Notes under the pieces: generated by a model | Seen by the model: only the letters and a program-made list of their open reading frames with translations | Database searches by the model: none | What the model was told of the DNA's origin: nothing | Assembly (NCBI GenBank): GCA_002633005.1 | Contig: NMRA01000267.1 | Coordinates: forward strand, 124,001 to 188,000 | Length of the DNA stretch: 64,000 nt | Direction: 5' to 3' | Source: Phoronis australis | Taxonomy: Eukaryota; Animalia; Phoronida | Made by a program: the position numbers and the translations under genes | Part shown: in pieces, positions 2,800-35,900 of the stretch | Numbering within the stretch: the first letter of the stretch is position 1 | Layout of the letters: each line of letters opens with the position of its first letter

Positions 2800-5700
2800 A
2801 GGCGAGATGAGCGTAAAGTTAAGAACACAGACGTCCGGCTAATTGACTTTGGATCAGCAACGTTTGACCATGAACATCACAGCACAATAGTCTCAACAAG
2901 GCACTACAGGGCTCCAGAAGTCATATTAGGTAGGCTGCCCTGACGCTCACTTGTCTTGGTGCAACTGTTTTAAGATGACATGGCTCCATCGAAAGCTAGA
3001 TAATATGTGTGCCATTTCCCTGAAATTTGTCCGGCTTTATTTCAGACTAACCGTGAAAACCTAGATAGGGTTGAATGAAAAATAAGACTAAACCATTAGT
3101 GAACATGTTTCTTTGAACCAAAATATGTGTGAGAAGAGATTTGTTTCAGTTTTTTAACGTACAACTTGACTGCCATTGGCAATGGATCCCAGCGTCACAT
3201 TTTTATAAGGTGTGAAAATTAATCAATCACCTGCAGTGATGGGTTTTAAAAGCACGTTCTGTGTTATCAGCTAGTACTACTCTGCAGACGCGCAGCTTTG
3301 GGATGCATACCACTCTGCTTAACTACAAAGTGTTTTGCAGCAGAGAGCAGCATCATGGTAGAGGGGTTAGTTTATTCTCTGAATAAGGGGGGGATAATCA
3401 TTCAGGTGTATTCTCTCTTCTGTTTCAGAGCTTGGCTGGGCACAACCTTGTGATGTATGGAGTATTGGTTGTATTATATTTGAACTCTACACTGGTTATA
3501 CGTTATTCCAGGTAAACGATTTTGCTAGATGTGTAAAGTGACTGTGTGCTGTTTGTGTTAATTTCATAGCTTACCAAGCATACACGTTAATCGAATATTA
3601 TATTATATTATATTATATCATATTATATTGTGGGAGTGTATCATTACAATGTTAATGGGTCATTGCAGGTGTCTGTAGATGTATTCATTTAATTAATACA
3701 TTGATTAAATTAAGCATGCTTTTTATAGTCTTCCACTCTCCTGATGTTCAATTAATGTCTCATTTCTCGTGTTTGAGTTCAGTTGGTGTGCAATGCTCTC
3801 TTTGTTGTAACAATTCCGGAAATGCGGAAGAAGTTGTATCAGACATTATGTAAACAAATTTCATTTGGTGACTGTGTTTATCAGTTCCACAAGTTTGGTG
3901 GAATGCTTCTTCCATTTTGTAGAATGTAGTTTTTGATGTACATATGTACATTAACTGCAGGCCCTCAATCTCGACATAAATTATAATTACTAAAAGCGAC
4001 AGTTACTTCACATCAAACGAAAGTCTTCAGAAACTATCAGAAATAATTGTTTTATCAAAGTTATGAAATCAACTATGCAGTCATTTTATTAAATAATGTG
4101 TTTCAAAAAAGACTGCTTCCTGTCCATACTAACAAACTGGTGCTCCGTAGCATTTTAAGGTGTTTGTGGTGTTATCTTTTGAGAGAACTATTGTTTTGGT
4201 TCATGTTATGAAGTAGAACTGTCTGCTTTGGTTCTTGAACATGGTAAGTTAGTGTTCCCTAATTACACAGATAGCACCATGGATAAGATGAGTTGATTGT
4301 TGTGATGGTCACATTCACTGAAGCTAACTTGATTTATTCCAGTTTGATGGTTCAGATTTATGTTCAATCTAATTAGCCATGTGTTGAACTCTAAAACAAT
4401 TGATTTTGCTATGCTAGTTGCTTTGCACTGATAGAAGTGCCAGTGTTAAATGATTCGTACCATAGATGACAGACAACGGATTCACTGCTTGGATATGTTC
4501 TCATGAAATTCCCTAGTAAAGGCACCACTTGCTTCCTGTTCTAATCTCATCTTCCTGGATAGTGTACTCAGGCGTGGAATTCTATTTCACTGCCTAGCAG
4601 TACAAAAGAAAACATTTTGGCTTTGAAAAGCAGTCAACGTCTCCATTTAGTAGAAGTCTTGGTATTGTAAGTAATTTTGCCAGTAGTTCAGGACGTTCAG
4701 TTGCAAAATTCAACCTCTAACAACACTAATCATTGTTAGCAGACGTTCATACCGGGCCAACTCAACAGGGTTTGCCAATAAAAGATGATGTTGCGGCTTG
4801 TTTGCAAAATCACAGATCTGATCTCTTTTCCTATAATATAGAGTCCCGTGTTCAATGTTCTATAATCTCTAGGTTACCATGTGCTCCCTTTTCTGTTTCA
4901 GACTCATGACAACAAGGAACATCTAGCCATGATGGAACGCATTTTAGGTTCCCTCCCCTACGCCATGGTCAGAAAATCAAAGTAAGGTCCACTAAAACAA
5001 TGAAGAGTTTACTTTCCATGTCTAGGAAATGCAAAATGAAGTGAATACTTCTTCCAAATCTTTATTAAATGTGGCAAGTTTATTTGTATGAAGGTGAGAA
5101 CAGGTGACGGCGACTTTCAGACATACCCGAATACAACTGTGTCCCCTAGTGGCAATTTTTTTCCATTTTCCTCAGTATCTTGATAGTTCCTTGACAGATT
5201 GTTATGAAATTCAGCAGATAATCAATGACAGCTTCCCATTTTTATGTAGATTTGNTCACCTGCAGTGATGGGTTTTAAAAGCGCATTCTGTGTTATCAGC
5301 TAGTACTACTCTGCAGACGCACAGCTTTGGGATTCATACCACTCTGCTTAACTACAAAGTGTTTTGCAGCAGAGAGCAGCATCATGGTAGAGGGGGTTAG
5401 TTTATTCTCTGAATAAGGGGGGATAATCATTCAGGTGTATTTCTTCTGTTTCAGAGCTCGGCTGGGCACAACCTTGTGATGTATGGAGTATTGGTTGTAT
5501 TATATTTGAACTCTACACTGGTTATACGTTATTCCAGGTAAACGATTTTGCTAGATGTGCAAAGTGACTGTGTGCTATTTGTGTTAATTTCATAGCTTAT
5601 CAACCATACACGTTAATCGAATATTATATTATATTATATTATATTATATTATATTATATTATATTATATTGTGGGAGTGTATCATTACAATGTTAATGGG

Positions 5701-8700
5701 TCATTGCAGGTGTCTGTAGATGTATTCATTTAATTAATACATTGATTAAATTAAGCATGCTTTTTATAGTCTTCCACTCTCCTGATGTTCAATTAATGTC
5801 TCATTTGTCGTGTTTGAGTTCAGTTTGTGTGCAATGCTCTTTTTGTTGTAACAATTCCGTAAAGTTGTAACAGACATTATGTAAACAAATTTCATTTGGT
5901 GACTGTGTTTATCAGTTCCCCAAGTTTGGTGGAATACTTCTTCCATTCTGTAGAAATGTAGTTTTTGATGTACATCTGTACATTAACTGCAGGCCCTCAA
6001 TCTCGACATAAATTATAATTATTAAAAGTGGCAGTTACTTCACAACAAACAAAAATCTTTAGAAACTAGCAGAAATAATTGTATAATCAAAGTTATGAAA
6101 TCAACTATGCAGTCATTTTATGAAATAATGTGTTTCAAAAAAGACTGCTTCCTGTCCATACTAACAAACTGGTAGGTGTTTGTGGTGTTATCTTTTGAGA
6201 GAACTATTGTTTTGGTTCATGTTATGAAGTAGAACTGTCTGCTTTGGTTCTTGAACATGGTAAGTTAGTGTTCCCTAATTACACAGATAGCACCATGGAT
6301 AAGATGAGTTAATTGATTGTTGTGATGGTCACATTCACTGAAGCTAACTTGATTTATTCCAGTTTGATGGTTCAGATTTATGTTCAATCTAATTAGCCAT
6401 GTGTTGAACTCTAAAACAATTGATTTTGCTATGCTAGTTGCTTTGCACTGATAGAAGTGCCAGTGTTAAATGATTCGTACCATAGATGACAGACAACGGA
6501 TTCACTGCTTGGATATGTTCTCATGAAATTCCCTAGTAAAGGCACCACTTGCTTCCTGTTCTAATCTCATCTTCCTGGATAGTGTACTCAGGCGTGGAAT
6601 TCTATTTCACTGCCTAGCAGTACAAAAGAAAACATTTTGGCTTTGAAAAGCAGTCAACGTCTCCATTTAGTAGAAGTCTTGGTATTGTAAGTAATTTTGC
6701 CAGTAGTTCAGGACGTTCAGTTGCAAAATTCAACCTCTAACAACACTAATCATTGTTAGCAGACGTTCATACCGGGCCAACTCAACAGGGTTTGCCAATA
6801 AAAGATGATGTTGCGGCTTGTTTGCAAAATCACAGATCTGATCTCTTTTCCTATAATATAGAGTCCCGTGTTCAATGTTCTATAATCTCTAGGTTACCAT
6901 GTGCTCCCTTTTCTGTTTCAGACTCATGACAACAAGGAACATCTAGCCATGATGGAACGCATTTTAGGTTCCCTCCCCTACGCCATGGTCAGAAAATCAA
7001 AGTAAGGTCCACTAAAACAATGAAGAGTTTACTTTCCATGTCTAGGAAATGCAAAATGAAGTGAATACTTCTTCCAAATCTTTATTAAATGTGGCAAGTT
7101 TATTTGTATGAAGGTGAGAACAGGTGACGGCGACTTTCAGACATACCCGAATACAACTGTGTCCCCTAGTGGCAATTTTTTTCCATTTTCCTCAGTATCT
7201 TGATAGTTCCTTGACAGATTGTTATGAAATTCAGCAGATAATCAATGACAGCTTCCCATTTTTATGTAGATTTGAGATAGTACGCCTCCTAATGACCATT
7301 TGTATTAAGTTTGTTTCTGTGGTGGCGTTCATCTCTGTCGGCCAAACGACTTACAATCTTTATGAAAATTGATTTTTGGTTAGTTCTAGAGAATTGTGAC
7401 ATATAGATGGCGCTTGCTATTCGCCCTAGCCGCCCTGTCTCTGTTCTTTCAGGTTACGATCATTCGTAGTTTGCTGTAACCAATAAACAGTGAAGAAATA
7501 CTTGCGAGTTATTTTCTAAGTTCTGACTGGTGTGGCGTCACCTAGTGGAAGTTTTGCTTCCCCAGCTGTTTCTCCTAAACCCCTGTAGGATGTTTATGAA
7601 ATTTGGCAAGTGTATTCTTATGAACGTGACAACGCATGACGATGACTTTTGGGCACATCTGACTTACATTTTGCCCCGTAGTGGCATTCATAGTCTTTTT
7701 ACGTTCTTAGAAGCTGTGTTCTTATTGCTGACTTGCTATGCATCCCCGGCAATTTTAAGTTAACTAGCATTGCTCCCTCTTGTGGGAATGTTAAGGATTG
7801 TGATAATCCCTTGTAGACGTATGTGGTGCACATGGTGGACGCATATCAACGCTCCTCATTGTTCTTGTAATTGACGGGGTGACGCAGTAGTTTTGACATT
7901 TTGGCATACAGCACTATTACTGAAGTTAAAAGTCTTGCATCTGTCTCTGGAAGTGTTTTGTCGTCAAGAGACAATTCAACTCACACTATCTCTAGCTCTG
8001 GCCCAAACTTGCNCTGTTGATCATCCTTGTGCTTTTGTTTTTGCATAGTAATGGTTCAGCTTATAATTTTCATTTGTCTCAAATTACCTGTTTGTAATCG
8101 ACTGATATTGGTCAAAGTGACGTACAGCATATATTTTAAAGAACTTTCAACACAGATATCTTTATTTTATTGATTTCTTCCTGGGCTTAGTGAAGTTCAT
8201 TAATCAATCCAGTTTTACTGCCCCTGACTTCAGATGGTGGTGATTCTGATGTGACCTACTCGTGACTGTTTGTGGCTTGAAGGTTGCACAATAAACCTTA
8301 TTCACGCAGTAACCATTTTAATAAGTGAGCCTCTTTTTAGGTTTAAAATACAATGCATTCGAGACATGAATAGAATGAGTGTGCACATGATTAGTGTTAG
8401 TGGTCGAGTGCTTTTGTGGAGATAACTTCATGTTTGATAAATTTTAGCATTTACTAATTTTCTGGAAATGTTGGAGAAAAAATTATCAATGTGTTCGATG
8501 TTATAGATTTTTTAGAAATTAGTATTTTGGTGGCTGTTTTGGCCCTGTTTCAGATCGTAATTTCGCAACTTCGCAAAAGCTTTCGAAATGGAAAACCTAC
8601 CAGAAGTCTTAAAAAGCCTCATTAATTTTAATGTAGGTGGAGTAGTGAACCCTGCCTTTTGGATAATTTGAGTAGTTTCATGGTTTTGATGAACATATGC

Positions 8701-11700
8701 CAATTAAAGTAGGCAACAATTCTAGGTCTTCATTTATTAAAAGGTGGTCTTCTGCTTTTGTCTGGCTCTGGTATATGCAGTACGCGCTGAAAGTATTCAG
8801 ACAAAATGTCCCCGAATTCCCTATCATGGCCACTCGACAGAAGATGATTTCATCATCAGACCAAGAATGAAGTTGTATTAACAGGGAAGTTAGTAACGTG
8901 GCTAAGCCATTCTGTAGAACTTTACAATTTTGCCACAATAATAGTCCTTTTTGTTGTTATAGCAGAATTAGCCATCACAGCTAGGAAACTGTATTGTGTC
9001 TGATAACTTTTTGTCATGTGTTGCATATGCTCTAATTTTGCATGTCTATACGGACGTCTTATTCCTTCAAATGTTGTATTTTAAATACAGTGCATTATTT
9101 GTGAATCTCTCGACTAGACTGAAACGAGCCAATGGTTTGTGATTGTTTCTTAATGTGTTACACTTATGATGTGTGCAAGAGAGTAGACAGAATGGGGCAC
9201 ATGCTAGCATTTACTGAGCAGTAATTAAAGGTGTCTTCTGTGGAAAACAACTTTTGACTTGGACCTCTTTTAAGTGGTGTCAATGTGTTTTTCTCTCAGA
9301 TGAGGAATGATGTCGGGGCAGTGGACAAATTGACAGTTTATTAGCACTTGAGACCATACTCTACACATAAAAGAACCCCTCCTGTTGATAGGTTTGCTTT
9401 TTAAGCCTGGTCTTAAGCAGTAATGAACTACGTTGTCTTACTGAGCTCCGAAATCTTCTCATCTGAGTAAGGAACCAGTTTAGACCTGTTTAGACCAGTT
9501 TTGTTATGGCAAGTGGTCTAAATGAAAAATTAATTTTTCGACAAAATGCGGGATTGTTGCTGCATTAAGTAGATAAATATTTGTCAACATTTTTTCTCCT
9601 TGTGTGAAAGGCTCTGTTTTGGGTGTTTGTGTGTTGGTGCGTGCGTGCTTGACTACTTCTCTCTTTCTACTTGTTGTTTTTTATTTTTCTATGCAAGATT
9701 GGGCTACTATTTTCATGGCCGGTTAGAGTGGGACCCCGACACTAGTGCTGCTCGCTACGTCCGGGAGCAGTGCAAGCCATTACATGTGAGTACGCGCAAA
9801 CGTGCGCTCCGACGTACACGCTGCATGTATTAGTACTTGCCAGCCATCTGGTGTTCAGGATGGACAACACGAGAGGTGGCCCAAGCAATGGGTGCATAAC
9901 ATGCTTGGCTGTGTTCTGGCTGAACATTGCCCATTTGCAGAGTTTTTGGATTTTGGGGTAATCCACCTTGGAAGTTGGTGAATAGGGACTACAAGTCGCT
10001 TGAATCAACTTACTTGAAATAGAAACATTACGCTTAACCATATTTCAAGAAATGGAGTATGCACTTTTGACAAGTTTTGAAAAATAAAGAAAATAACTCT
10101 GCAACATGAGCCATGTATATTCAACTCCCAACTTTTTTTGGAAAATATCAAAATTCTGTGAATGGATATGTATCCTTGTCTAATCACATGGCAAGTGTGG
10201 ATTTCTCTGTTTGTCTTGGGCTAGCTAAGTGTTGTCTGTTCTGGCCTGTCGGCCCCATCTTCGTAGCTTAGAACAAACAGTGCATGCCCGTTTGTTGACG
10301 TTGCCAATTTGTTTTTTTGAAGAAAAACCAAGTACTTCTATAAGAGCAAGTTGGACTGGGACGAACATAGCAAAGAAGGAAAATACGTGCGAGATAATTG
10401 CAAGCCTTTACATGTACGTATAGCTTTCTCACGCACTGTATTACTTTTCCTGCCTCTGTCTGCAATCAAAGTAGGTATCGTGGACAAACTTCTTATCTCA
10501 GTCTTATAAAGCATGGTGAAGATTTCACGTGGGAGAGTGACGCGCTGCCGCCTGGGTATTGACAGACCAGTTGTTACTCCAGTATTTAAGGAGACATATT
10601 TCAGTTAAGTCAGTTTTCCTCCCTCACTAACCGCAATGTTTTCCATCAGCAGTGTCGTTTTGTCCTTCTGATTAACAGTTGACTTGATGTTTGGAAGGTA
10701 ACTATTTGAGTCAAAGATGGCGTTCAGCACATTAGTATTAATGAGGGTATTCCGCGTACCACTCGCTAAGAAGCTCCGTGTCCACCGAGGCGGCGCTTGT
10801 GGAAGTTACTGATGTTTCGAGGTCTTCTACAGGTGGAGTCTGACCATGTTACATCACATCACACTTTTTCTTGCTCGTGCACGTCTGCTTTCTGTGTGCT
10901 GTCCTGAGTCGTCAAAATCTCTTCACTTATTTAGTAATCATTCCAAAAAGGTGAAATTAAATTTTGTCACAAATTCCTTCACAGAAATAAAGGTTAAGAA
11001 AAATTTAATCTGTTACTGCCATGTTTGTTTGTACTGTGAAGATGTCATCATAAAACAACATTTGGTGGACGTTATTAATGTTTGTTACAAAGTAATCAAA
11101 CTTTTGAAAATGGAAAAATTTCAATTTTGGCAATTTTTTTTTTTTTTCGAAATAAGTGGAGAATTAACATATGTCATGTGTGCATAATTCGCTCGATCAG
11201 TATTCTGTGAAGTAACGCTTGTTGAGTGTAGGTCTATCACTAACATGTTGTGCACAAGATGTTTCAGGTATTCTGTTAGTATAGAGCGCAGATGTCGAGT
11301 TTGGCTTCTATCTACATCACCCAGTATAACTGCGCTTCGACCAACCTTCTGTTCAGTCACTGGTTATCTGCCAATGAATTATAAAACCGATGTTTTTATG
11401 ATATCAAAGAACTTGTTTAAGTCTATTTGGATAGGCTTGAGTAAATTCGTATGTACAATAAGATCACTGAAACCAAAGCTTAAAGCATCGTATTTAAATA
11501 AAATATACCTAATTTGATCACTGTATTTTCATTCCTTACATGAGGCATTGGTCTGCATTTTAGTTGAATTTATTCTTCAGACATTAATTTGTTGTGTGAT
11601 TGTGCTACATTAGGCATTAACTCAAAGCTCAAAACATTGTAGAATCCAAAGATCTTCACCACCGTAAGTGTCTAATTTATTATTTCACTTGGAAATATTT

Positions 11701-11958
11701 ATCCCCTTGTTGATGTGTTATGTAACATGGCTCCCATTGTCTTTACAGCGCTACATGTTGGGTAGTGGTTCCGAGCACCAACTGTTGTTTGACCTGATCC
11801 TCAGAATGCTGGAGTACCAGCCAGGAGACAGGATCTCGTTGCGGGAGTCGCTTGAGCACGGCTTCTTCGACCCACTCAAACGCACTGCCACTGCCTCCAA
11901 CCAGTTGGAAGACACCAAGAACGACCTACGTGAGCGTTCTCATAGTCTAAGCAGATAA
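2800..11958 (+). CDS. CLK2: CDC-like (LAMMER) dual-specificity kinase CLK/Doa, 3' part (5' exons lie upstream of the window)
   Basis: GT-AG exons 2800-2929 ([43 protein letters not shown]), 3429-3511 ([28 protein letters not shown]), 4902-4981 ([26 protein letters not shown]), 9698-9785 or 10323-10413, and 11749-11958 (RYMLG...[28 protein letters not shown]...RERSHSLSR*). Phases join in frame. DFG, APE and the diagnostic [11 protein letters not shown] motif are present. The paralog number is nominal; probably the single invertebrate CLK. Confidence 0.96.
5256..7274 (+). repeat. Second copy of 3227-5254, including duplicate CLK exons 5455-5537 and 6922-7001; probable haplotype/assembly duplication
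   Basis: Direct repeat abutting the single N at 5255. The first half differs by SNPs and small indels; the second half is essentially identical. Confidence 0.9.
5620..5670. repeat. (ATATT)n microsatellite; shorter allele at about 3594-3629
   Basis: Pentanucleotide run whose length differs between the two duplicated copies. Confidence 0.85.
7120..7790. repeat. Interspersed repeat with internal CCCTAGTGGC-type subunits; related inverted copy at about 53600-54050
   Basis: 7560-7690 aligns to the reverse complement of about 53860-53990 (CAGCTGT.TCTCCTAAACCCC...TTTGGCA.GTGT...TAGTGGCA). Confidence 0.7.
8870..9020 (+). repeat. Interspersed repeat fragment shared with about 41175-41320 and about 43670-43810
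   Basis: Shared TTAACAGG.AAG.TAGTAA.GTGGCTAAGCCATTC ... AGAATTAG block. Confidence 0.65.
9698..9785 (+). CDS. CLK2: CLK alternative exon A (88 nt), post-LAMMER insert
   Basis: Pyrimidine tract plus AAG acceptor and GTGAGT donor; phase 2 to phase 0; encodes [29 protein letters not shown]. Confidence 0.9.
10323..10413 (+). CDS. CLK2: CLK alternative exon B (91 nt), homologous to exon A
   Basis: TTGAC branch-like site (A at 10298), T-tract plus AAG acceptor, GTACGT donor; phase 2 to phase 0; encodes [30 protein letters not shown]. Not in the ORF track. Confidence 0.88.
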
Positions 11959-13326
11959 AGCGCAAGTTGAAATGAAAGCTTTTCTCACTAGACTATAGAC
12001 TTTTCACTGGATTTACCATTGGTCAGATTCTCTGCAGAGTTGCACAGTTTTGATCAAGTGTTGGAAGAGACGAAACATCTAAATAACTTCCAAATTCGAT
12101 GGGGTTTTATTTTGTCCCTACTGTTATTTAGTCCGGGGAATTACTTTTTCAAGAGACAGTGCAATGCTCTTGTCCCCTGTCCTATTTTGGGTACCGCATT
12201 TATTGGTTTAAAAACTTATGTTAGCTGGGATTGGTTGTGCCATTCACCCGCTGGTTATCTGCCTGTTCACATGATAAATAGCTCCTGGTTGACTTGAGTC
12301 TCAATGCATGACTAGTGAAGCCGCATGATGTAACTGACATCGTTGACTTGTGCCCGTCCTAGCATCGTGTCGCGCTTACAGCTGCAGTTATAGGTATGCC
12401 TGTTGCCGCTTACTCGTAGTCATGTGTTAGAGATTAGAGTTTTATTTATACAACTAACCAGTTGCCTAACTTCACCTTGTCTTTTATAGATTACGACTAC
12501 CCGTTGTTTCAACCAAGTTCCTATAGCCAAAAGTGCTTTGACACATGCTCACGGAACGACGCGTATTTCCATTTGTCTGCTTGAACGTAGGATTGCCAGT
12601 TTTAGTTGTTGTTTAACTGATGAAATCCCGACAGCTGTCGTCACTTTAAGACATACAGCCACAGAGACTTTTTAAAACACTAATATAAGCAACCATTTCC
12701 TTTTTTTATCTCGAGATGTTTTTCAATATCAAGAAGATTGTAGTAATTTGGTTGTGCGAGTCAATACTCTGGACATCATTTTCGGACATTGCATCTTTAA
12801 AATTCTACCGGCATTGGTTTTACAATTGTCATTTATTGTTTTGATATGAAACTACTGCTGTTCGTAATGTATCCAGTGATAAAACTTCTGTAGAAAATGG
12901 TACCAGTTCAAGTTTTTGGTGAATGTAGAGAGATGTTGAGTGGATAGTTGCATTGTTGATATCATCAGTGTCATCCTCATTGTAAGAAACATTGTTTTTG
13001 TTGTTTTATTACTCTTTTAGGTTATTACATTAGTCACTGTCCTGTTTCAGCATTTCTAGTGTAGTTTACAGTGAAGATAATCTTGTTTGATTAATGGCAT
13101 GTCGTAAATATGAGCAATAATCAGCGAGTTTAGACTGTGACGACAGAGAGAAACCACGGATTAATAGATTAGCAGAATATTTCTCATGTGCAATGTTTTT
13201 CAGTTTGAGAATAGAATTATTACTCGAGCAGGTGTTTCATTCACTTCTCAACTTTTGTGCAAAATAAGTAAGCAGAATATGCATGCCGAACGATTCTTTT
13301 TTGACTTTCAGATTTGCTTTGATTAA

Positions 13327-13782
13327 GGTATGTAGGACCGTAAAAAATGTCAAAAAAATTTGGAATATTGATTGGATTCATTTGAAACTTTCTGATATTA
13401 TGCTTCGTGCACTGTTCCAAGCACTATTAGAAATTGTTTCCAAAATGGCCGACTTTTGCATGAGGGTTCAACAAAATTAAGACTTAAGATTTTTATGGAA
13501 AAACAGGTTGCGTGAAACGAAATGATGATTTAAAAACCAATAACTGCATTTGTGAGATTTCCTTCATGTGAAATGCAATTTTATCATGTTACTGATAGCG
13601 TATTGTCATGACTGGACCTTTCTTTTTCGATAAATTTTAGGAAAAAGACTCTAGTCATGTGATATCATTAATGTCATGTACACATTCAGTAAAAAATGAA
13701 ATTGTACAGATTTTTCTGCTTTCAGAAAAAATTGTAGATTGTTGACTAAATGCAGAGCCTAGTTGATGAGGTCCTACATAAC
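13327..13782. mobile_element. Non-autonomous TIR element (Kolobok-like, TTAA|GG start) in the putative CLK 3' UTR
   Basis: TTAA|GGTATGTAGGACC ... GGTCCTACATAAC inverted ends. The interior resembles about 34450-34930 and about 50900-51260. Confidence 0.55.
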
Positions 13783-13893
13783 TTTGAAGTACGTGTAATG
13801 CATAGTGTGTAGATATAGAAGGTTTGCTGTGTGGTCATTGTGTTTTAGTGTCTCCCTGTATGATGAAAGCAATTTGTGCCTCTTCCAATTACA

Positions 13894-13899
13894 AATAAA
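13894..13899 (+). terminator. Candidate CLK polyadenylation signal (3' UTR about 1.9 kb)
   Basis: AATAAA followed by GT/T-rich sequence (TGTGTTTATT); the G/T strand skew fades shortly afterwards. Confidence 0.55.
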
Positions 13900-15799
13900 C
13901 AGTAACTGTATGGCGTTGCCTGTGTTTATTTAAAGACAGGTGTTACCATTGAACGTCTGAAATAGCATGTTTTGTGGTGAGAATGAACATGCTGTAACTT
14001 GCTTTGCTAGTAAATATACTCTTTTTATTAGCCATTATGACAGGTGTTTTGTCTTTCATATGTTACTTAGTCTAAATCGCATGCTCTCACTTGCAACTAG
14101 ACTTTAAAAAATGCTTACAAAAACTACACTTTTATTAGGAGCATAGACAATAAAATTACTCAAGGCTCCTCTCAGAAATTGACTAATCAGGTATGCCTCT
14201 ATGATAAAACTCGTTTCAGTCAAGGATGTATAGGTGGAATTTCCGCTTAACTGGGACAAAGGTCGCTGTACCGTTAGTTGTTTGGGTTGGTATAAATTGG
14301 ATTTCATGTTACTACACTAAACTCTTGATCCAGTCTGATGACTAAACTGATGCAAGTTTTATGAAGGTTAACTTTCGATTGATGCGCCTCATTTTTTATC
14401 ATTTAGCTTTTTATCTTTTTTGGGGGGGGCAGGTTTTACCAGTTTACATTGGGTGCACCTCGAAATACGATGCATGATGCTGTTCCAACAAAAATAATGC
14501 CCCTATGATCATCATGCCACTAATAACGTGACACAGCTGCAAACCAAAGTTAGACCTGCTCTGCGCATGAGTTTTGTTGCTTGCGTTTCCTTCTCTGGTA
14601 TACAACCACTAATTACTCCCTGCATGCGTAGAACGATGGGAAACTTGAATGTTAGGAAAGTGTAGTGGCCCTGACTTACTTCAAGGTATATTGAGCGCTG
14701 TTTAGGACTTATGCCTTGGAATATCCCTTTTCCCACAATATGAGTGTCGAAAGTTTTGGTTTAATTTTGCGCGGTTAACAAAAACCGTGTTTCAAAATGG
14801 ACAAGTCGACACGTCTTGTTTTGTGATCGTAATCATGGAGCTCTTGGGTGTTGTTTTGATGATTATAACACTCGATTTTTATATTCTTTTGAAGTTGAGT
14901 TTTGCCCTGTTCTGTGGGCGAGAAAACGAAAATTGAATTGGATCACTCTCGTAAAATCGTTATTCCTTAACGTGATGGGGGTATTCCATTTTCGTTACCA
15001 ACACGACGTCACAGGAAGTGCGTACATGCTCCATTTTTGAATTTTCAATGTTTGTGTTCGATATTACACCCTGTTAATAAGAATTCGATTTTCATTTTTA
15101 TTCTGCTGAAACGGGGCAAAATGCAATTTTCACTTTGCCAATTTGACCTGCCGGGTAACGCCCAATAGAACTTCCAACAGTCCAAAGCAATCCTGTTTGA
15201 ACAAAGATTACACTGTGTAGTGCACGGGCTCATTTTGTGAACAATGACAAGTTTCGGTTTTGCTGACACGTTCAGGCTGGATTGACCTTCCATGTTCACA
15301 AAACTCACTAGCGTTCTCAGTGGCAGATCTACGTTTTCAGTAAGGGAGGGGGAGCTTTAGGATTCGCGCGAATCCGAGGCTCGTGGCGCCGAGCTGGTGG
15401 AGGTCGAGGGGTAACCCCCTCCCTTGTAAGATTTTTGTTGGTTTTTGTAGCCGATTTCGTTTTCTTGGTGACTTTTTTTTAATTTTTATTTTTGATCCTG
15501 TCCCAGGGAGGAGGGGTTTAAACCACCTGAACATTGTAAGAAAGTGGTGTTACCTGATTTCCGAGGGGCTAAAGAACTGTGGTTTACTGGAAAAGAATGA
15601 AGGTAGCCTACATGAAAAAAATAAATAAACACGTGGGAAAAATGTTTATTTTCTACGACTCGAATTGCTGCTTATCTGAACGCTCGTTTGGTTAGTGAAG
15701 GAGACTCAATCGTAACAATCATTCACAACTTAAAGTAAATAACTCTATCCCACGTTTTTGTTCAAAGACGTGCTACACGACTCTGGATAAAGCAGGCCN

Positions 15800-16784
15800 T
15801 TTTGTGGTCGTAATCATGGAGCTCTTGGGTGTTGTTTTGATGATTATAACACTCGATTTTTATATTCTTTTGAAGTTGAGTTTTGCCCTGTTCTGTGGGC
15901 GAGAAAAACCAAAACGAAAATTGAATTGGATTACTCTCGTAAAATCGTTATTCCTTACCGTGATGGGGGGATTCCATTTTCGCTACCAACACGAAGTCAC
16001 AGGAAGTGCGTACATACTCCATTTTTGAATTTCCAATGTTTGTGTTCCATATTACACCCTGTTAATAAGAGTTCGATTTTCATTTTTAGTCTGCTGAAAC
16101 GGGGAAAAATGCAATTTTCACTTGGCCAATTTGACCCGCCGGGTAGCGCCCAATAGAACTTCCAACAGTCCAAAGCAATCCCGTTTGAACGAAGATTACA
16201 CTGTGTAGTGTACGGGCCCATTTTGTGAACAATGACAGGTTTCGGTTTTGCTGACACGTTCAGGCTGGATTGACCTTCCATGTTCACAAAACTCACTAGC
16301 GTTCTCAGTGGCAGATCTACGTTTTCAGTAAGGGAGGGGGGCTTTAGGATTCGCGCGAATCCGAGGCTCGTGGCGCCGAGCTGGTGGAGGTCGAGGGGTA
16401 ACCCCCTCCCATGTAAGATTTTTGTTGGTTTTTGTAGCCGATTTCGTTTTCTTGGTGACGTTTTTTTTTAATTTTTATTTTTGATCCTGTCCCAGGGAGG
16501 AGGGTTTAAACCACCTGAACATTGTAAGAAAGTGGTGTTACCTTATTTCCGAGGGGCTAAAGAACTGTGGTTTACTGAAAAAGAATCAAGGTAGCCTACA
16601 TGAAAAAAATATACACGTGGGAAAAATGTTTATTTTCTACGACTCGATTTGCTGCTTATCTGAACGCTCGTTTGGTTAGTGAAGGAGACTCAATCGTAAC
16701 AATTATTCACAACTTATAAAGTAAATTACTCTATCCCACGTTTTTGTTCAACGACGTGCTACACGACTTTGGATAAAGCAGGTC
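15800..16784 (+). repeat. Second copy of 14819-15798; probable haplotype/assembly duplication
   Basis: About 1-kb direct repeat with scattered SNPs and indels, joined by the single N at 15799. Confidence 0.9.
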
Positions 16785-17169
16785 CGACTCGGAGGTGCAC
16801 TAACTAGTCTCAATTCTTCACAAATATTTTGTTATCCACGTTTAACAATCAAAAAGGTACTCCGCTAAGTTGTCAAAACTACGTCATTTTTGTGAACCCA
16901 GCGAATTTTGCGGTGCGTTCTTTTATTAGTTATGCTATGCTGAGCAGCACGGTGCCGATAGTTTATGCTACGTAATGCAAATGAGCCACTGCTCAGAATA
17001 TTTCCATTTCGAACGTTTTTACTACGACCAGCATTTGATATGACGAACTGAGAAGTAAAGTCCCTTGTCAACAAAAGACTCTTTCATTTTCCGTTTTACT
17101 CATGAGCTGCACACCATAGGGACCGAGGGGGCTATAGCCCCTCTTTTTTCAGTGCTGTGCCGCCCTGTT

Positions 17170-17975
17170 ACTGTAATATGAACGCAGGAAGCTGTCTTAT
17201 TTTATGCTTAATTATTACGCGAGTGTCTAGTCCAAGTTCGCACTTGAAAAACCCTAGATTCGTGTTACAAACAAGAACTCGAGATTTCAAGTTCAGACTC
17301 GAACTTATTATTGTATTACTAGTGGGGTCATTACGTTCAAGGTAGGATTAGACAGTGCATCTGCGTAAACCAAAAGTGTACTCGGGCACAGAATGATAGA
17401 CAGATGTGGCGTATTTAGAGGGGGCCATGGCTCCCCCTAAAATTTCTCTTACTTCATTTGGCAGTTCGGTCGTGCGAATGTCTGACGGGCAAAATCCTGG
17501 ACAATACTCTGCCACGGCACCCTAACTCAAAATTCTAGATCCGCCCCTGGACAGTAGTTACCTTAAGTCTGCATAAAGTACAATGGAAAATGTAAAAAAT
17601 AATCTAGATTTCTAGTACTAAGATTAGACCGAGGACCCGCCATCTTTTTACTTGAAATCGAACTCGAATTTTATTTTTGACATATTATGTTTTACTTAAG
17701 AATGAACTCAAGGCATATTGTCTATTGTTATGTGCTCGATTGTAATATGGTTCGCTTGGATGAATGTGCAATCCCTCTGTGCACTTGATGACCCCAGCAT
17801 CACAACTATAAGTTTGAATTTGAACTCAAAACCGTGAGTGTTTATTTGAAATCTCGAGTTTTTTGCTCAAGTGGTCACCAAGTGCGAACTTGGGTTAGAC
17901 ATTCGTCTCCGTAAACCATGATATTGTCGAGTGAATAATGATAGAAACTTATCTCGAGTTCGTATTAAAGTAGAA
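17170..17975. mobile_element. Degenerate fold-back (MITE-like) element with a small nested MITE at about 17405-17549
   Basis: Inverted arms GTGTCTAGTCCAAGTTCGCACTTG / CAAGTGCGAACTTGGGTTAGACAT, AACTCGAGATTTCAA / TTGAAATCTCGAGTT and TGGGGTCAT / ATGACCCCA. Inner element GTGGCGTATTTAGA...TCTAGATCCGCCCCTG. Confidence 0.7.
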
Positions 17976-18593
17976 TGGAAAATATCAAAAATAATTTGGA
18001 TTTCGAGACCGGAGATCAGACCTGGCCACAGAAATGCAAAGGTTAAACATAGAAAATTTACTTAGTTCTGTTTATTGACAAAAATTATGTAATGTTGAAC
18101 AAGCGTCGTTTGACGATATGTTTTGTGTTAACTGGTTTGCTTTGAAATTCTTTGAGTAGGGAGACTTAAACGAGCATGGAATGGAATAATTTCACGCAAG
18201 CCTCAGCACAGGCCTAGTCAGAATTCATTACGATTAACGGTTTAAGTTGCTGGATCCTAGTTTAGCTAAAATTCAAATTAAACGGAAATGTGTATGTTAT
18301 ACATCGAAACAAACGGTGTTCTTTGGGCTGGGTACAAAAAGAGTGCCTCATTTCCTTGCATGTTGTATAATTAATGACCAATTGTGGATGAGTTTCTTTT
18401 CCGAGGACCCCGATTAAATTTTCCACGATTATTGTAAAAGAATGCAAGAACACGCGGCTTTGGTGATTTTTTGTACCCTGATCAAATATTATTCGTCACA
18501 CTGAAAATTCGATCAGTCATGTTCGCCAAATTCAAGCCCGTCAACTACTTCTTTCACTTTCTGAACATTTACGTATTAATTAATAATCCACAG

Positions 18594-18760
18594 ATCAAAG
18601 AAGAATAAAGCGAATCTCGGAGCAGCTAATCCAAGCCTTCCCACAATTCTCCATGTCCACTATAATGAAGGTCGTGGAAGAGGAACAAACCGCTAACGGT
18701 GCCGCTGATAAACTGCTCACAATGGACGAGGGTGCAGCTGTGTGCAATGGTGGAACATAA
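18594..18760 (+). CDS. Putative terminal exon encoding a CUE-like ubiquitin-binding domain; upstream exons unidentified
   Basis: CAG acceptor, phase 1: QRRIKRISEQLIQAFPQFSMSTIMKVVEEEQTANGAADKLLTMDEGAAVCNGGT*. FP ... LL spacing is typical of CUE domains; ATTAAA at 18841. Confidence 0.55.
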
Positions 18761-21700
18761 AACTATTGGTGCGATATACGAAGTCCATAGTTTTAGAGTG
18801 GTGTTGTCCCTGTAAATGTCGATGATTGGACAAATAGATGATTAAATAATGCAAATTGATATTTTGAAGAAATGAGTTGTCTGGGACGGGCGCCCTTGTT
18901 TAAACCGTAATAGTTGAGATTGGTTGGTTAAGTAAGCAAATCAACGTCAGATGCAACAAGCCTCTCCGTGTGCTTGTTGCCAATTGAAGTATAGAATCAA
19001 GTTTTCACGCGATGCTCTGATCCGGTGATGGTTATGAGCCACAAACTGGAAATTTGTTTTAAAGAATATTGCCAGTGTTCTTTGCATCCCGCGGCGAACT
19101 GCAGCTATAGTGAAAAGACAGAGTGAAATACTAAATGACACGCTGTTCTTATTTCAGTAAGAAGGTGTTAATATTCAGTTTATTTGATCAGAAATCCTCA
19201 GTGAAAGAAAACCACACAGCAGCTCAATGGAATGACAGGCGAAGTTTATTTTAATCCTCAACTTGTTTTTTACAGATTGAACCGAGAGCTACGCCAAAGG
19301 GGTTGATCCCAAGATCGGGAACGAGCACAATCTGTCTCGGCGCCACGCCCACTACCATACATGATGGCTGCTGATAGGCGTGGCTGGGCACGTCTTTTGC
19401 ATAATACCCTAACTTCAACCGTCCATTCGCTTAAGTTGCCTACAAAACATTGATGGACAGTGAAGATGAGTTTATCACCGATATAAAAAAGAAATCACTA
19501 CATTATGCACTACCATGTACACACTCTGATGCCTCGAATTTTGAAGCCGGAAAAAGGTTTCTCTAGACTCTACTTTTTTGTCTTTTCACATGACCTAAAA
19601 AGGAGCGTTGATATTAATATTCTTCCGGAAACGGACATACTTTTTTCACATACTTGTGAGACTTGGCGCTGTCAATATGTTAATGTGACACCGAGATCGG
19701 GTTGGAAAAAGTCGACGTTCAGATTTTCATTGACGATCTTTGTCAGGCAACTGCAGTGTTAAAAACTACAGTCTGTGATTAACATAAGTTATATCAATAC
19801 CGTTGCAACTCGCCTTCTGCTAGAAAGGTTTTAATTACAGGTTAGCGGCAAGGTCAAACCTCCTGAGTTTTAGTGTTTTGTAGTTAGTGTGTTTATAAAC
19901 CAAGAACGGCTGTATTTATACATAGCCACAGTTCAGCATAGCCGATTATAAATTCTGTGAATTTTGTCATTGTATCATATTGTATTTTATTCCCGAGACT
20001 GCGCAATACTCTCAAGAAAACGTAAAATGAGTATCCTATTTATTGAAATTTCATATTTCATGTTTATATTTTTAACAGCGACAAGTGTTTTCTCTGTCTG
20101 ATTCTTCTTCGAAATATACACACTGTGCAATTCTACATCACATTTACGTTCGGTTTTGCATTTTCTGTTTGCACACAACAGCGCCGCCATACACGTGACT
20201 TCATGATGCAATATTAATTTGTGTCTCACAGTTTTAAGCTGTAATCAAATTGGAAATTATACATGCGTAATATTCGAGTTCTGCTGCATTAATTTACATT
20301 TAGGAAACCAATTTGACCTCTCTGACTACTGAACCGTGTCAGAACTGGTATAAAAATTCTTAATTTGAAAGAATGGGGTTTTACCTTACGTGAGCTTTGT
20401 TCCCACAATATAGACAATGTAGTTACACTTTTACGAATTCTATACACGTGACTATAGACAATTTTTAATTTGCGAACTGTTTCCGCATGAACTGTGAACA
20501 AAACAACGGTCGAGTAGTGCTAGATTTGGACTGCGTTTTGAGGGACCAAAATTGCAAAACACGGTTTGGGCTACCTTAATAATAACATTTTCCATTTTGT
20601 TGTGTATGATGAGAACATTTTTAGAACTCCCGGTAAAAATTCACAATATAAAAACGACTAGATTTTCGATTTTTTGTAAGAAAAATTATTCACTTGCGTA
20701 GATTTTACACACGTTAGAGTACCCGGCAAAAGGTATGACGTTTGATACATGCCACAATTTTATCGGCATTTCAGTCATTTCCTTATTTTTGAACTCTCAG
20801 TTCAAATTTTTAACCAGTCGCTCACAGGGCACTGTGTTTAAAGTTGGCATTTTGATGTGCTTGATAGATATATGAGCAGTTGTAAACCAAAACAGATAAC
20901 GACTGAACATATTTCTTCCGGAATTTGTTAGTGCCAGTTCAAACTAGAAATTTTGAAACTCATCCTGCGTCGTCGCTACCAACTCATTGTTGCCCGTAAA
21001 CGTTCACAAATACTTCACGTCACGCATACTTCACGTGAAAAAACACCTGGCATTATGCAACATTTTCGTGTTCCATACGCGTAATTTTTCAAGTGTTGAA
21101 AAGGGCATGTGTTTGTATGAAGTATAAACAGACAAAAGACATAAGCAAAGCATATAATTGTTTGGTGGTAAAATTTTTTCACTTGAAAAGTGTTAATTTG
21201 GAAACCAACACAACCCAACACAGGCAAGTGATTCGCCAGCCTTGTAAAACAGTGTGCTGTATTCATTCTATGGGTGACAAGAAAATACTCTCCTATTGAC
21301 TGAATTCTTTCGAAGAGACTGCCAGTTTGTTATACCAGTTGCTGCTTTTATTACAGATAACGCCATGTACAAATGTCATCCTATGTCTGTTGTGGTGTAA
21401 TGTTCGTGGAGATAAACATTCTGAGTTTTATGCCAGCGTTCATGGAACATTTCCGAATTAACAACAACACTGCACTTCTGCTACATCAGAATCCTCGCCA
21501 TTAACAAAAACGTTCGGATAACTGTATATAGGCTGTTATACAATAGTTCAAATTCGCAAAAAACTTCCTTTGACTCTCAAGTAATCCTTTTTGAAGTAGG
21601 GGAATAAATTGCACCTAAGATTCTCAAGGCAACGCAAGTCAGCTTTGGGTGGAATCGTGTACTGAGCTTGAAGACTAAGTAATCTAAAGCCATTAGTTGT

Positions 21701-29200: not shown

Positions 29201-30738
29201 TTGGCCGTGAAGATTGTCTCGTGTCTGAATAATAGTTAGAGTCTTGGGCTCGTGCAAATCCAATTTCGCCGAGCTCGTCCTAAACTCTTCTGGTGTGGGG
29301 ACGGGTGGAAACGGACAGCGTTGACCAAAATCATGCATTGAATGCAACACCCAACGAACGGAGTCTTCTCAGATTGTACAACTTAGGTTTCCAACAGTTA
29401 TTCAGTTCCCATTCTGTTTTAGTCGGTTGTGTCAATTTTAGTGAGAACTGCCTTGGTCTGCTACGGCCCGTGGACATGTTCAGTGAAAGTAAGAGTCGCA
29501 ATCACAGCTTTTTCGCAGGTTACTGCTCAAGTTGTAAGCACTGCCGCCATCTTCTGTAACGTCTCGAACACAGTGTGTTGTAACAAAATACAAAACAAGT
29601 AAGCAACTGACTTAATGCAATGTCTGCGGCAGCCTACAAAATGTTGCGATTGGGAGCCCGTGAATATGCATCGCTTAGGAAAGTGTTGAAGGAATTTGTC
29701 CAACCTTTTTATTGCCAAACTTTTTATTGCCAAAGTCAATGTCAGATCATTTTTATTTTTAGATTAACGCGGAATCTTGAAATACTCGAAGAAAGGGCAG
29801 CTGAACTTGAAAATTCTCTACAGGAAATGAAGAACACGGAACGGCAGCGCGCGCAACGGGAATCTCGTGTAAGAACTTCCAGCGTCCCAAGCATCACCGA
29901 CGCCCTGAAATACGACAACTTCTGGCCGGTTGATATTCACGAACTCACGGGTTACAAAAAGTTGCAAAAGAACCCATACGAGTCCGAGATTATTCGTCTC
30001 CAACAAACTGTTAAACACTTGAAAGCTCAAAAGGCCGTGGAAGACAGGAAACGAACAGACCTGGAATCAGAAATGAGTTCTATTGTTGAGGAAAACAACG
30101 AACTCCAGTATAAACTGAGAGATTACGGCCAAATGAAGAAGAGGGTTCTTAGTCTGGAAATGGAAGTTGACGAGCTCCATAAAACTGCTCGTAACAAATT
30201 CAACACAGAGATTGAGAATTCGGAAGCAATAAACAAAACAAATGTTGATCCAACGGCGGAGATGATTGCCGAGCATGACGATCCTCAAACAAACAGTGCA
30301 GAACTGCTGAAACTCAAAAACGGCGGCAGCGCTTACGGCAGCAGAGAATCGCTCAACAAAGCTGGATTACAATCGCATGATTCTCCGAACAGCCAGGCGG
30401 CTTTTCTGCCGGGCGAATCTCTGCTGAGCGAATTAAACGCGCAATACATGTTTCTTGTTCGAAAGTACGAAGCAATGTTGGAAGCGAAGCGAAACTCCAC
30501 CGTTAGCACGGCAACCGATGCCGAGCCCAAACCCACCCTTGCTTCTACCGAGAGCCAAGCGAGCACAGTTACATCTCACCGGGAATGTCAAACATCGAGG
30601 AACTTCCAGCTGGAGTACAATCTGGAGAAGAAAACCAAGTCATTCGACTATGATAAAGACCCACCCGAGTACAGGAAGATATTTAAAGAAATATTCGAAA
30701 CTCTGAGAAAAACTTCTGCCATCTGCGAAGAAAAATGA
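26238..30738 (+). CDS. CDR2: Cerebellar degeneration-related protein 2 (CDR2/CDR2L)-like coiled-coil dynein adaptor
   Basis: Exons 26238-26289 (MMEEEFISIGETIWYES, GTAAGT donor; best first-exon candidate), 28506-28618 (DLQLAAEIGKTLLERNKELE, CC1-box AAxxG), 28939-29087 (FLNHQLETLRDLNESRVKVFDEVE) and 29763-30738 (…GESLLSELNAQYMFLVRKYEAMLE…PPEYRKIFKEIFETLRKT, resembling the CDR2 C-terminal helix). Phases join in frame. Confidence 0.9.
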
Positions 30739-32962: not shown

Positions 32963-35900
32963 CTATGGCTCTGTTCCCTTGAGATACCACATGAGGCCTT
33001 TGGTGACACAGTAGTCCTACAAAGAAGCAAATCTCTATGTACTACATGATCAACCAAATTAGACCTGGACTAGACCTAACCCAAGTCTTCATTGAAAAAT
33101 GGCTACACTAAAAATTTATTTTTGGATGAACGCACAAGTCGAAATTGCAAATATAGGATATTTGTTCTAGCTGAAAGGATTTTACAAAAAACAATAATGG
33201 ACTCAGGAGATATCCCTCTATGCTCAACAGGTACTTATAGCACCATGTCTTTGATGGTTTAAACATAACTCGACAGGTACTTATAGCAAAATGTCTTTGA
33301 TGGTTTAACCATAACGAGATATAACGTAAAAGTTTTTATTTAAAAAAGTTTCAGTAAAATTGGCGGGGGAGTTAGATTGCTACTAATGTAACTTTCTTGC
33401 ACATGAAAACTTGACTTAAAAACATAGTAACGTGACAATAATAAAGACATAGTAGTAAGGATATTTTTAGAATCCTCGATCTTTCTCCTTTCAGAAAATA
33501 TATACTTCTATGGTTGACAAAGCAAAGTTCTTTCGATATTTAACTTAGAGTTGAGGTCATTTATTAAGGTCCTTGATAACCTTAAGAGGAACTGGTGCAG
33601 AATACTGACTTAGGAATAAATTGCAGAGTAAAATAAGAATGAACACAGAACTTCAAGAAAATAAACACATTGAATTGTAACCGAGACCATGGATCCTTAA
33701 TTCCATAATGCTTCACAAACGCAACACAGCGAAGGTAACTACCTTTTGCAATTTCTTGATTTCACTGTCTGTCAACGTTGTGTTGAACTCTTCTTCAATC
33801 CTCTTTTTAAAAGCAACACTCTTTATTCTGTGGTGTGTCGTGAACATTGATACCAAGAGGCCCCTGTATTGATCATATTTATCACCCAGTTTTGGCAAAA
33901 CAAAGACAGGTTCGGCTGGAGCACTTGCTGGCCACTGAAATACAAGAAACATTCTGTCAGGTCTTTGCCCTTCACAACAAAGGAATGGGTTCAACTTACA
34001 ACGAAAAAAGTTATTAGAGTTCAAAACTGACTGATTAACTTCCGCAAACATTATTTTGTGACAGAAAGATAACAACCACTTTGTGATGAACTAAGAGCTT
34101 TTTGAAAATTGGTTGGCTCAGGTAATGCTACTCACACCACACAAAACTCTATTGCGTACTGTACAGCTTCACACATGCTGTAAGATGGATTTTTCAAAGC
34201 ATGTAATTGCATATATGATAATCATGAAAACAAGCCACGTACTTTTACTGTCTGATAAACATGGACTATTTTCAATAGCATCTGGTGTAAAACCAACCTC
34301 ATTTTGAAATTGTACGTCATGTCGCATATACAAAGCATGAAACTTACAAAAAGGTACACACCACATTGAGAAACGCAATCTACCAAAACTATCAAAATAC
34401 ACAGAACTTTAAACTCAAGTGTGTTCTAAGCAGTTTCTCAAAAATTCACTTAAGGCTATGCAATACCCAAGAAAAAATTACAAATTTGGCCAACCTCAGA
34501 ACATATCTCAAAAAATGGGTTATTGGATTCCTATGAAACTTTCAAATACTATGGGTTATGCAGTTCTCCAACACGGTGTTAGGAATTGTTTTTCAACTTT
34601 GTATGAGGAGCAACCAAAAATTGAACTTCTATGATTTCATAACAATAAAAATTAGAAAACTGTAACTGTGCTTTTTTGACATTTCATCTTGAACATTTAT
34701 ATCGAATGAAATTTGGTCATGCTATCAATACTGTTGCTTTACTATCAATGTACCTTCCGTTTTGCTAAATTTTACTACAAACACATGGTCATGTGACCCA
34801 ATTTATGGCAGACTGATAGAGAGTAAAAAAATCAAATTTTACAGCCATTCTACTTTCAGAAAATATGTACTTTTACTGAGCTTTTTGATAGAGTACAGAT
34901 CTACCAATAAGGTCCTACATATTAATCTTAAAAGTTCCTATATCACATTGACAGCATTATGGCAGTTCTACTCTCTGCAATTATACGAGGTTCACAACCA
35001 CAGCTTTCTTAAGTTCAAATTTCTGAGAAAAATTCCTCATCACATTCATTAAGAACTGATCAGCAATTGACTCTCACAGCAAAAAGCAGAAATCTGTTTT
35101 CATGACCAATAAATACAAACCATTAATTCAGCACAATGCCTCTCCTACCTTGTCTCCAAGCTTTTGCCCCCCGGCCTCCATCACAGTCTGTTCTAGCAGC
35201 TTAGTAGAAACCCCACTGCCTAGCACATGCCCAGGGGGACACTCCATCAGCCGCAAGCTGAACAGTTTCTTCAGCTCACTCAGTGATAGCACCATTCGAC
35301 TGCGCAGCTTGTCGCTCATAAACTTCATTAGCTCAAGTTTCAGCTCTGTTGAGGCTGGAGCCGATGTCTCTATACTGCCATTGGACAAACAGTCCGCAGT
35401 GGACGGAGATTCAGAAACATTATTCGCTGTAGTGTCAGAGCCATCACCACCTACGCTACTGCTGCCCCCAGCACTGCCACTATGAGATCGCGATCGTTTG
35501 CACACTTTTTGATCAGACTTCTTATGAATTTTTTCAGTGTCTGTGTCACTTATGTCTGATCGGTCACTCGACTTAGTCCTTGAGCGAGACGTGGTGCGCC
35601 TCCTCTTGGGCTTATCACATTGTTTCATTTCATGGTCATCGTCACCTGAATGGATACACACATCACGTGAGTACAGTTTTCAAAAACTTAGCAGATGATT
35701 TCAGCTTAAAGTGGAATGCCAACACTTTTAATGTTACCTTTAATGAAAATACAGATCCTTGTCGAGGCCAAAAACATTACGTACCATTCTCCTGGAGTGT
35801 AAATACCAAGAAATTTCCAGCATCAGGATCTAACCTAGAATCACGTTCGATTAAACTTGTCAAGCAAGCCTTTTGTGTTGGTACACAATATATGGTTAAG

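Follow-up and report, generated by a model that had tools for sequence, protein, structure and literature searches.

Tandem homologous exons spliced as apparent alternatives in a CLK kinase gene of the phoronid Phoronis australis

The CLK gene and its surroundings

We analysed a 64,000-nucleotide stretch of the Phoronis australis genome (the window, to whose first letter all positions refer), which carries on its forward strand the 3′ half of a gene for a CLK (LAMMER) kinase, as judged from open reading frames and tblastn. The LAMMER motif, the DFG motif and the activation segment are all present, and the best matches are CLK/Doa proteins; the exons for the HTD catalytic loop, the beta-hairpin insert and the N lobe lie upstream of the window, tblastn giving no match before position 2797. 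Splicing was followed in three raw-read RNA-seq runs (X2, X3 and X4, from one study with the tissue unstated, about 18–19% of each run's reads being used) and in one contig run (X1, assumed to be RNA), two studies in all, and a joint was listed when it had 3 reads from 2 starts. The features of the gene are as follows, with read counts in the order X2/X3/X4:

2800..2929, + strand: CLK exon with the DFG motif, the activation segment and the P+1-loop histidine linked to temperature sensing; 79–100% identity to CLK/Doa proteins
5455..5537, + strand: CLK helix F exon, second copy; found by tblastn, joint to the LAMMER exon in 41/32/45 reads
6922..7001, + strand: LAMMER exon, ending in phase 2; found by tblastn, its donor joining both A and B
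9698..9785, + strand: exon A, 88 nt, 29 residues, apparently derived spiralian type with 4 Lys/Arg; junction reads and X1 contig, grouping with A types
9786..10322, + strand: intron between A and B, 537 nt, long enough for splicing; no joint across it listed
10323..10413, + strand: exon B, 91 nt, 30 residues, ancestral-like type with 8 Lys/Arg; junction reads
11749..11958, + strand: final kinase exon with an internal donor at 11929; its read-through finishes with the conserved tail ERSHSLSR
12490..13853, + strand: alternative terminal exon 2, a 31-residue tail and 3′ UTR; 11929 to 12490 in 11/16/9 reads, end taken from a contig
18594..18767, + strand: alternative tail exon 3, a 55-residue tail, spliced on to about 19275; 11929 to 18594 in 21/13/37 reads

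Loose read ends join the exon at 2800–2929 to the next exon. At the other end of the gene, the exon at 11749 had been taken for the last one in the first-pass annotation of this DNA, made from the letters alone; it is indeed the final kinase exon, but its donor at 11929 is spliced onward to 12490 or 18594. From the RNA joints and their translation, three C-terminal tails are available to the kinase (9 residues by read-through, 31 residues and 55 residues), the longest with a weak match to the TTC3 helical domain that falls below the Pfam cut-off.

Two tandem duplications, each across a single N, lie at 3227–7274 and 14819–16782 and are 95–96% identical between copies; both are likely to be haplotype overlaps in the assembly. 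Within the former, 3227–5254 is repeated as 5256–7274 (96% identity, a single N between them) and two CLK exons are doubled: the first copy of the helix F exon lies near 3430–3511, and the duplicate LAMMER exon near 4902–4981 is likely an assembly artefact. Elsewhere in the window we noted exons of POLR3E (RPC5) on the minus strand (33713–47839) and, on the plus strand, a 375-codon open frame (29611–30738) of coiled-coil appearance with no Pfam match.

Sequence and alternative use of exons A and B

The first-pass annotation had described two tandem homologous exons of 88 and 91 nt with intact splice sites, and AG acceptors and GT donors do lie where it placed them. Both lengths are 1 mod 3 and both exons run from phase 2 to phase 0, making these adjacent homologous exons of similar length and the same phases. 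Its reading of the frame also holds: behind the phase-2 LAMMER exon either exon alone keeps the frame open to the end of the kinase, while inclusion of both brings a stop inside B at 10341–10343 and inclusion of neither a stop at 11795. The peptides share 12 of 29 residues (41% as protein), and over the last 27 codons, which hold 12 identical residues, four of these are written with a different codon. In keeping with the proposal of an old, selected duplication rather than an artefact of N-joining, A and B are diverged, whereas the N-join duplications are 95–96% identical over 1–2 kb; a self-comparison of the window gave no A–B match at E 1e-8, and there is no N between 8013 and 15799. The charges likewise differ as had been suggested, with 4 Lys/Arg and a net charge of 0 in A, and 8 Lys/Arg and a net charge of +3 in B.

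All four joints expected of alternative use were present in each of the three raw-read runs, on a single strand and with GT..AG borders. The LAMMER exon was joined to A (7001 to 9698) by 18/14/21 reads (53 in total) and to B (7001 to 10323) by 39/21/39 reads (99), while A was joined to the next exon (9785 to 11749) by 6/12/26 reads (44) and B to the same exon (10413 to 11749) by 20/13/33 reads (66); the X1 contig represents isoform A. Both exons are therefore spliced, rather than one of them never being used, and with A accounting for 97 of 262 junction reads both are major forms in the RNA. The A share was 29, 43 and 39% across the three runs of this one study, with no significant difference among them (p 0.16). 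Joints from A to B, which would be common if the exons were not alternatives, did not appear in the runs mapped to the window: neither an A-to-B nor a skip-both joint was listed in the three runs at the threshold of 3 reads and with about 18–19% of each run, which bounds unlisted A-to-B joints at 6 or fewer against 44 A-to-next reads. We conclude that, at the level of steady-state RNA, the CLK gene almost certainly uses A or B, one at a time.

Exon pairs in relatives and the origin of the pair

Homologues were collected with the activation-segment exon (the best 120 of 5103 matches) and with a profile of the A-type segment (the best 120 of 305), and three protein-cluster look-ups, each with up to 15 members listed, gave CLK isoform records; the relatives' isoforms are protein records from annotation pipelines. 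Among the matches listed, 12 of 21 named spiralian species (10 molluscs and 2 nemerteans) have both types at the protein level: three Haliotis, three Octopus, Magallana gigas, Ruditapes, Pomacea, the chiton Liolophura, and the nemerteans Lineus and Tubulanus. At this level, both types are kept in relatives instead of one being unconserved or in decay. The other nine species have one type only among the matches listed, which are protein records and not genomes, with A in seven (Argonauta, Crassostrea angulata, Physella, two Patella, Macrostomum and Dimorphilus) and B in two (Adineta and Owenia). No annelid species has both types among the records listed. Further A-type records come from Helobdella and Pecten, and further B-type records from Lottia, Solemya, Potamilus, Bulinus and Pinctada. 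Two CLK paralogues of Helobdella robusta (P0220, P0259) both carry A-type segments; loss of B, or a division of roles between the paralogues, is possible there. Outside these groups, horseshoe crabs, a spider, Daphnia, wasps, flies and corals had a single type per gene in the isoform records listed (15 of 47 members for the arthropod set and 15 of 38 for the coral set).

Within each of the relatives' 12 pairs, 60 of 60 upstream residues are identical, and 30 of 30 downstream residues are identical in nine; of the other three, two Haliotis pairs reflect the molluscan swap of the last exon and Tubulanus an artefact of segment cutting, its flanks in fact matching. In the annotated Lineus isoform X3, A is followed by 13 residues that correspond to exon B in a frame shifted by one base (13 of 13 steps are compatible, against a maximum of 6 across 20000 shuffles), and this record fixes the exon order as A then B in that species also. 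A search of 50% representatives with exon B gave 240 matches, and among the proteins examined two carried the motif twice: a 66-residue fragment, and a Steinernema model with two LAMMER motifs, which we read as two copies of the kinase rather than an exon pair.

Molluscs show a second swap, in which the last kinase exon exists in two homologous forms; by tblastn the window has one copy of that exon. All four combinations of A or B with either last exon are on record in Ruditapes (P0016, P0175, P0018, P0176), Octopus (P0077, P0012, P0136, P0144) and Magallana (P0149, P0006, P0148, P0150), and three of the four in Haliotis and Liolophura. In Tubulanus polymorphus (P0289, P0290) the B exon (residues 522–551 of P0289) is strongly diverged and has lost the invariant tryptophan; its low-confidence model lacks the two strands and keeps helix alphaH, and this may be a repurposed or low-activity isoform.

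With regard to origin, the window's A is nearer to A than to B, and its B nearer to B than to A, in all six species compared. An unrooted tree was built from 40 rows and 30 columns, without four congeners from Haliotis and Octopus and without the diverged B of Tubulanus. All 16 A-type rows fall on one side of a branch with support 95/88, a grouping that leans partly on common length and charge features, whereas B types intermix with vertebrate, coral, rotifer and arthropod segments, so that on this unrooted tree B looks ancestral and A derived. The arthropod segment is B-like in its letters and A-like in its length. Constraining A to group with B from the same species gave p-AU 0.002 both in Lineus and in Octopus, a rejection in each case; for the window the corresponding grouping had p-AU 0.07, and a window-specific duplication is not rejected by this test. 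The placement of A types on one branch points to one old duplication, and it appears very probable from these sequences that the window's pair shares this single ancient origin. The best reading would be one duplication before the split of molluscs, nemerteans and annelids, and before that of flatworms as well should the A type of Macrostomum be orthologous. We presume an age of more than 500 million years, on the divergence dates that we assume, and exon A may serve as a shared character when spiralian phyla are placed.

Predicted effects of the swap and comparison with known systems

In human CLK1 the insert spans residues 400–432, with a two-strand sheet at 409–418 and helix alphaH at 424–432; Trp419 packs on the LAMMER alanine, and alphaH covers the groove that SRPK1 uses for docking, blocking the site, according to the available text of PMC2667211. 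The first-pass annotation had equated the swapped segment with the C-lobe insert of CLK; it corresponds to the second half of this MAPK-like insert together with helix alphaH, and not to the whole insert. An AlphaFold model of the Lineus A isoform, which superposes on human CLK2 structures with a TM score of 0.95 (target length) and an rmsd of 1.9, has two short strands and a helix at 420–428 within exon residues 405–433, at modest confidence in the insert (block means of 50–68 over residues 401–430). By homology and from this model, the exon would encode the strand pair, the tryptophan, a loop and helix alphaH, with the strand pair, the tryptophan and alphaH together covering the LAMMER helix.

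The two types differ consistently in charge. In all 13 pairs the A segment contains 4 Lys/Arg; the B segment contains 7–10 in 12 pairs and 7, counted by eye, in Tubulanus. Across 11 pairs, the position two residues into the exon is Lys in every B and Asn/Gly in A, B has Tyr where A mostly has Trp, the residues after Trp-Asp are mostly Glu-Lys/Arg in B and mostly Pro-Thr-Thr in A, and the last residue is mostly basic in B and Tyr/His in A. The K-x-K start of B prolongs the basic run left by the LAMMER exon, while A, one residue shorter, drops basic residues and has a mostly Pro/Thr/Ser loop before alphaH. The core residues (Trp, Tyr-Val-Arg and Cys) are kept in both types, and so both isoforms are predicted to be active. 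On this basis the swap would be expected to tune surface electrostatics and not catalysis, and the single gene probably yields two kinase forms that differ in the charge of a surface patch.

Taken together, we consider the best explanation, with a probability of roughly 0.8, to be splicing of A or B from one old spiralian duplication, giving two kinases that differ in the lid of the lower lobe. The CLK gene would splice in one or the other exon and so make two kinases with different lid charge, both expected to fold and to keep activity; the basic patch of B against the neutral, Ser/Thr-rich surface of A could let phosphorylated SR domains or partners bind the lower lobe differently, and the exchange of lids could in turn lead to different phosphorylation of SR splicing factors. 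That such tuning of substrates or partners would be the main effect we place at a little under even odds; CLKs are argued to choose targets through the active site and to lack a docking groove (PMC2667211, in its available text), in which case exchanging the surface could have little bearing on SR substrates. The one-of-two output would most likely be kept by competition between splice sites, with nonsense-mediated decay of double-inclusion transcripts as a backup. Neither steric nor U2/U12 exclusion is suggested by the locus, where the intron measures 537 nt and the donors (GTAAGG, GTGAGT and GTACGT) are all of the major type. Nonsense-mediated decay applies to stops more than 50–55 nt before a junction; the double-inclusion stop lies 70 nt before the B donor, so that decay probably contributes, and the skip-both stop lies 132 nt before the donor at 11929.

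Those same distances, both beyond the 50–55 nt rule, would also suit loosely coupled cassettes whose function is control of dose, double inclusion or skipping sending the mRNA to decay in an autoregulatory loop. The absence of a steric block across the 537-nt intron, the GT donors all of the major type, and the A-then-B frame of Lineus X3 are compatible with this; however, no such joint was listed in the three runs (6 or fewer unlisted against 44 A-to-next reads), and it leaves unexplained why two distinct amino-acid types are conserved across phyla. We rate it as improbable as the main function, and it can coexist with a kinase swap between A and B. Comparably improbable is that the basic run completed by B acts as a signal for nuclear import or speckle retention, placing A and B forms in different compartments. 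The Lys/Arg cluster is extended over the exon junction by B and broken by A in 12 of 12 named pairs, and the related kinase DYRK1A has its second import signal in this insert. Fly and worm CLKs, however, are placed by alternative N termini, and no import signal is mentioned in the available part of the paper that reports this (PMC12795684).

Somewhat less doubtful, yet still unlikely, is that the swap mainly tunes the temperature–activity curve of CLK, providing two thermometers from one gene in a cold-blooded marine animal. The thermosensitive histidine is present in the exon at 2800–2929 and the swapped lid packs on the LAMMER helix (PMC2667211, available text), but the source on CLK temperature sensing names the N terminus as the likely contributor, and the conserved differences between A and B are mostly in surface charge rather than in core residues. 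We give a negligible chance to a pair that merely persists neutrally or stems from misassembly in the manner of the two N-join duplications in the window, one of which doubles two CLK exons, since A and B agree at only 41% of protein positions and have no N nearby; the splicing of both exons and the retention of both types in the 12 named relatives rule it out for practical purposes. Beyond the preferred reading of a lid exchange by A-or-B splicing, a far broader proposal seems speculative and on balance doubtful: a spiralian-wide splice switch of half a billion years would rebuild the kinase lid, the molluscan second terminal exon would raise this to four lower lobes, the choice would be regulated by tissue or temperature, possibly by CLK itself, and the whole would stand in for the four CLK genes that vertebrates have.

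Homologous exons that are spliced in as alternatives form a known and rare class, with 236 human events and 154 fly genes reported in the available text of PMC9741552. The closest counterparts are MAPK14 (p38 alpha) and MAPK8/9 (JNK), likewise CMGC kinases, in which homologous internal exons of the lower lobe substitute for one another as in the CLK pair (PMC8373072, consulted text). Placed from the peptides given there, the swapped exon of MAPK14 encodes helix G with the first part of the MAPK insert, and that of MAPK9 encodes helix F, whereas the CLK pair is the next tile downstream, the end of the insert and alphaH; the same source dates those events to Vertebrata and Chordata, while the CLK event is spiralian. 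FYN exons 7A/7B and the alternative arms of PRKCB are likewise homologous exon swaps that change kinase binding (PMC9741552 and PMC8373072, as available), but they belong to different kinase groups and lie elsewhere in the domain. Within the CLK family, Drosophila Doa is listed with a duplicated-exon substitution, its place unstated (PMC9741552, table S4), and with mutually exclusive exons (PMC3303723), in the accessible portions of both. Among 42 fly records, 40 have one type of the A/B segment and two have no such segment, so that, at the level of protein records and not of the fly genome, the listed Doa event seems to lie elsewhere; in flies this junction varies too, through 6 residues inserted where the segment begins.

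For vertebrates, single-exon status was examined on protein records and the human list of duplicated exons, and CLK1–3 are absent from that list in the consulted part of the PMC8373072 supplement. The insert and alphaH of human CLK1–4 are the same structural element, and human and amphibian CLK2 are of B type, with 30 residues and 7 Lys/Arg. While vertebrate CLKs diversified by gene duplication, molluscs, with one CLK gene according to the available text of PMC12795684, diversify the domain by splicing. That 2025 survey describes invertebrate CLK domains as highly conserved, single-copy in molluscs, and the insert as a divergence hotspot with a conserved splice site, without mention of the A/B pair in the text available; isoform records give two lower lobes, and four in molluscs. 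We found no description of the CLK A/B pair in the open-access literature, which was the scope of the search and excludes subscription papers, and the relatives' A and B isoforms are already in RefSeq, unremarked. The kind of event is known from MAPK14, JNK and FYN, and the CLK case seems new. It offers a natural swap experiment on the CLK insert and alphaH, whose role is known from structures only, and a direct way to test which features beyond the activation segment determine how CLK handles its substrates and over what temperatures it works.

Concerning RNA structure around the pair, three tests of potentially competing regions gave no competing pairings beyond those of shuffled sequences (10, 1 and 5 of 15 shuffles as good), and RNA folding near the two exons is unremarkable (A, z +0.7; B, z −1.1); a fourth pairing test (0 of 15 shuffles) reflected a local hairpin judged to be repeat-like. 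A GU-rich stretch upstream of A, at 9625–9654, can pair with the first part of the A–B intron, at 9786–9815, which would loop out A (1 of 15 shuffles as good, region z +0.7). The A–B intron contains the octamer GTATCCTT at about 10170–10177, which resembles what we take to be the minor-spliceosome donor consensus; no joint from it was listed, and it is probably a chance occurrence. A hairpin at 9284–9477, 220 nt upstream of A and picked from a scan, has z −5.7 against shuffles; a stretch resembling it in both orientations lies at 45357–45414, there is no Rfam match, and the hairpin is likely a palindromic repeat.
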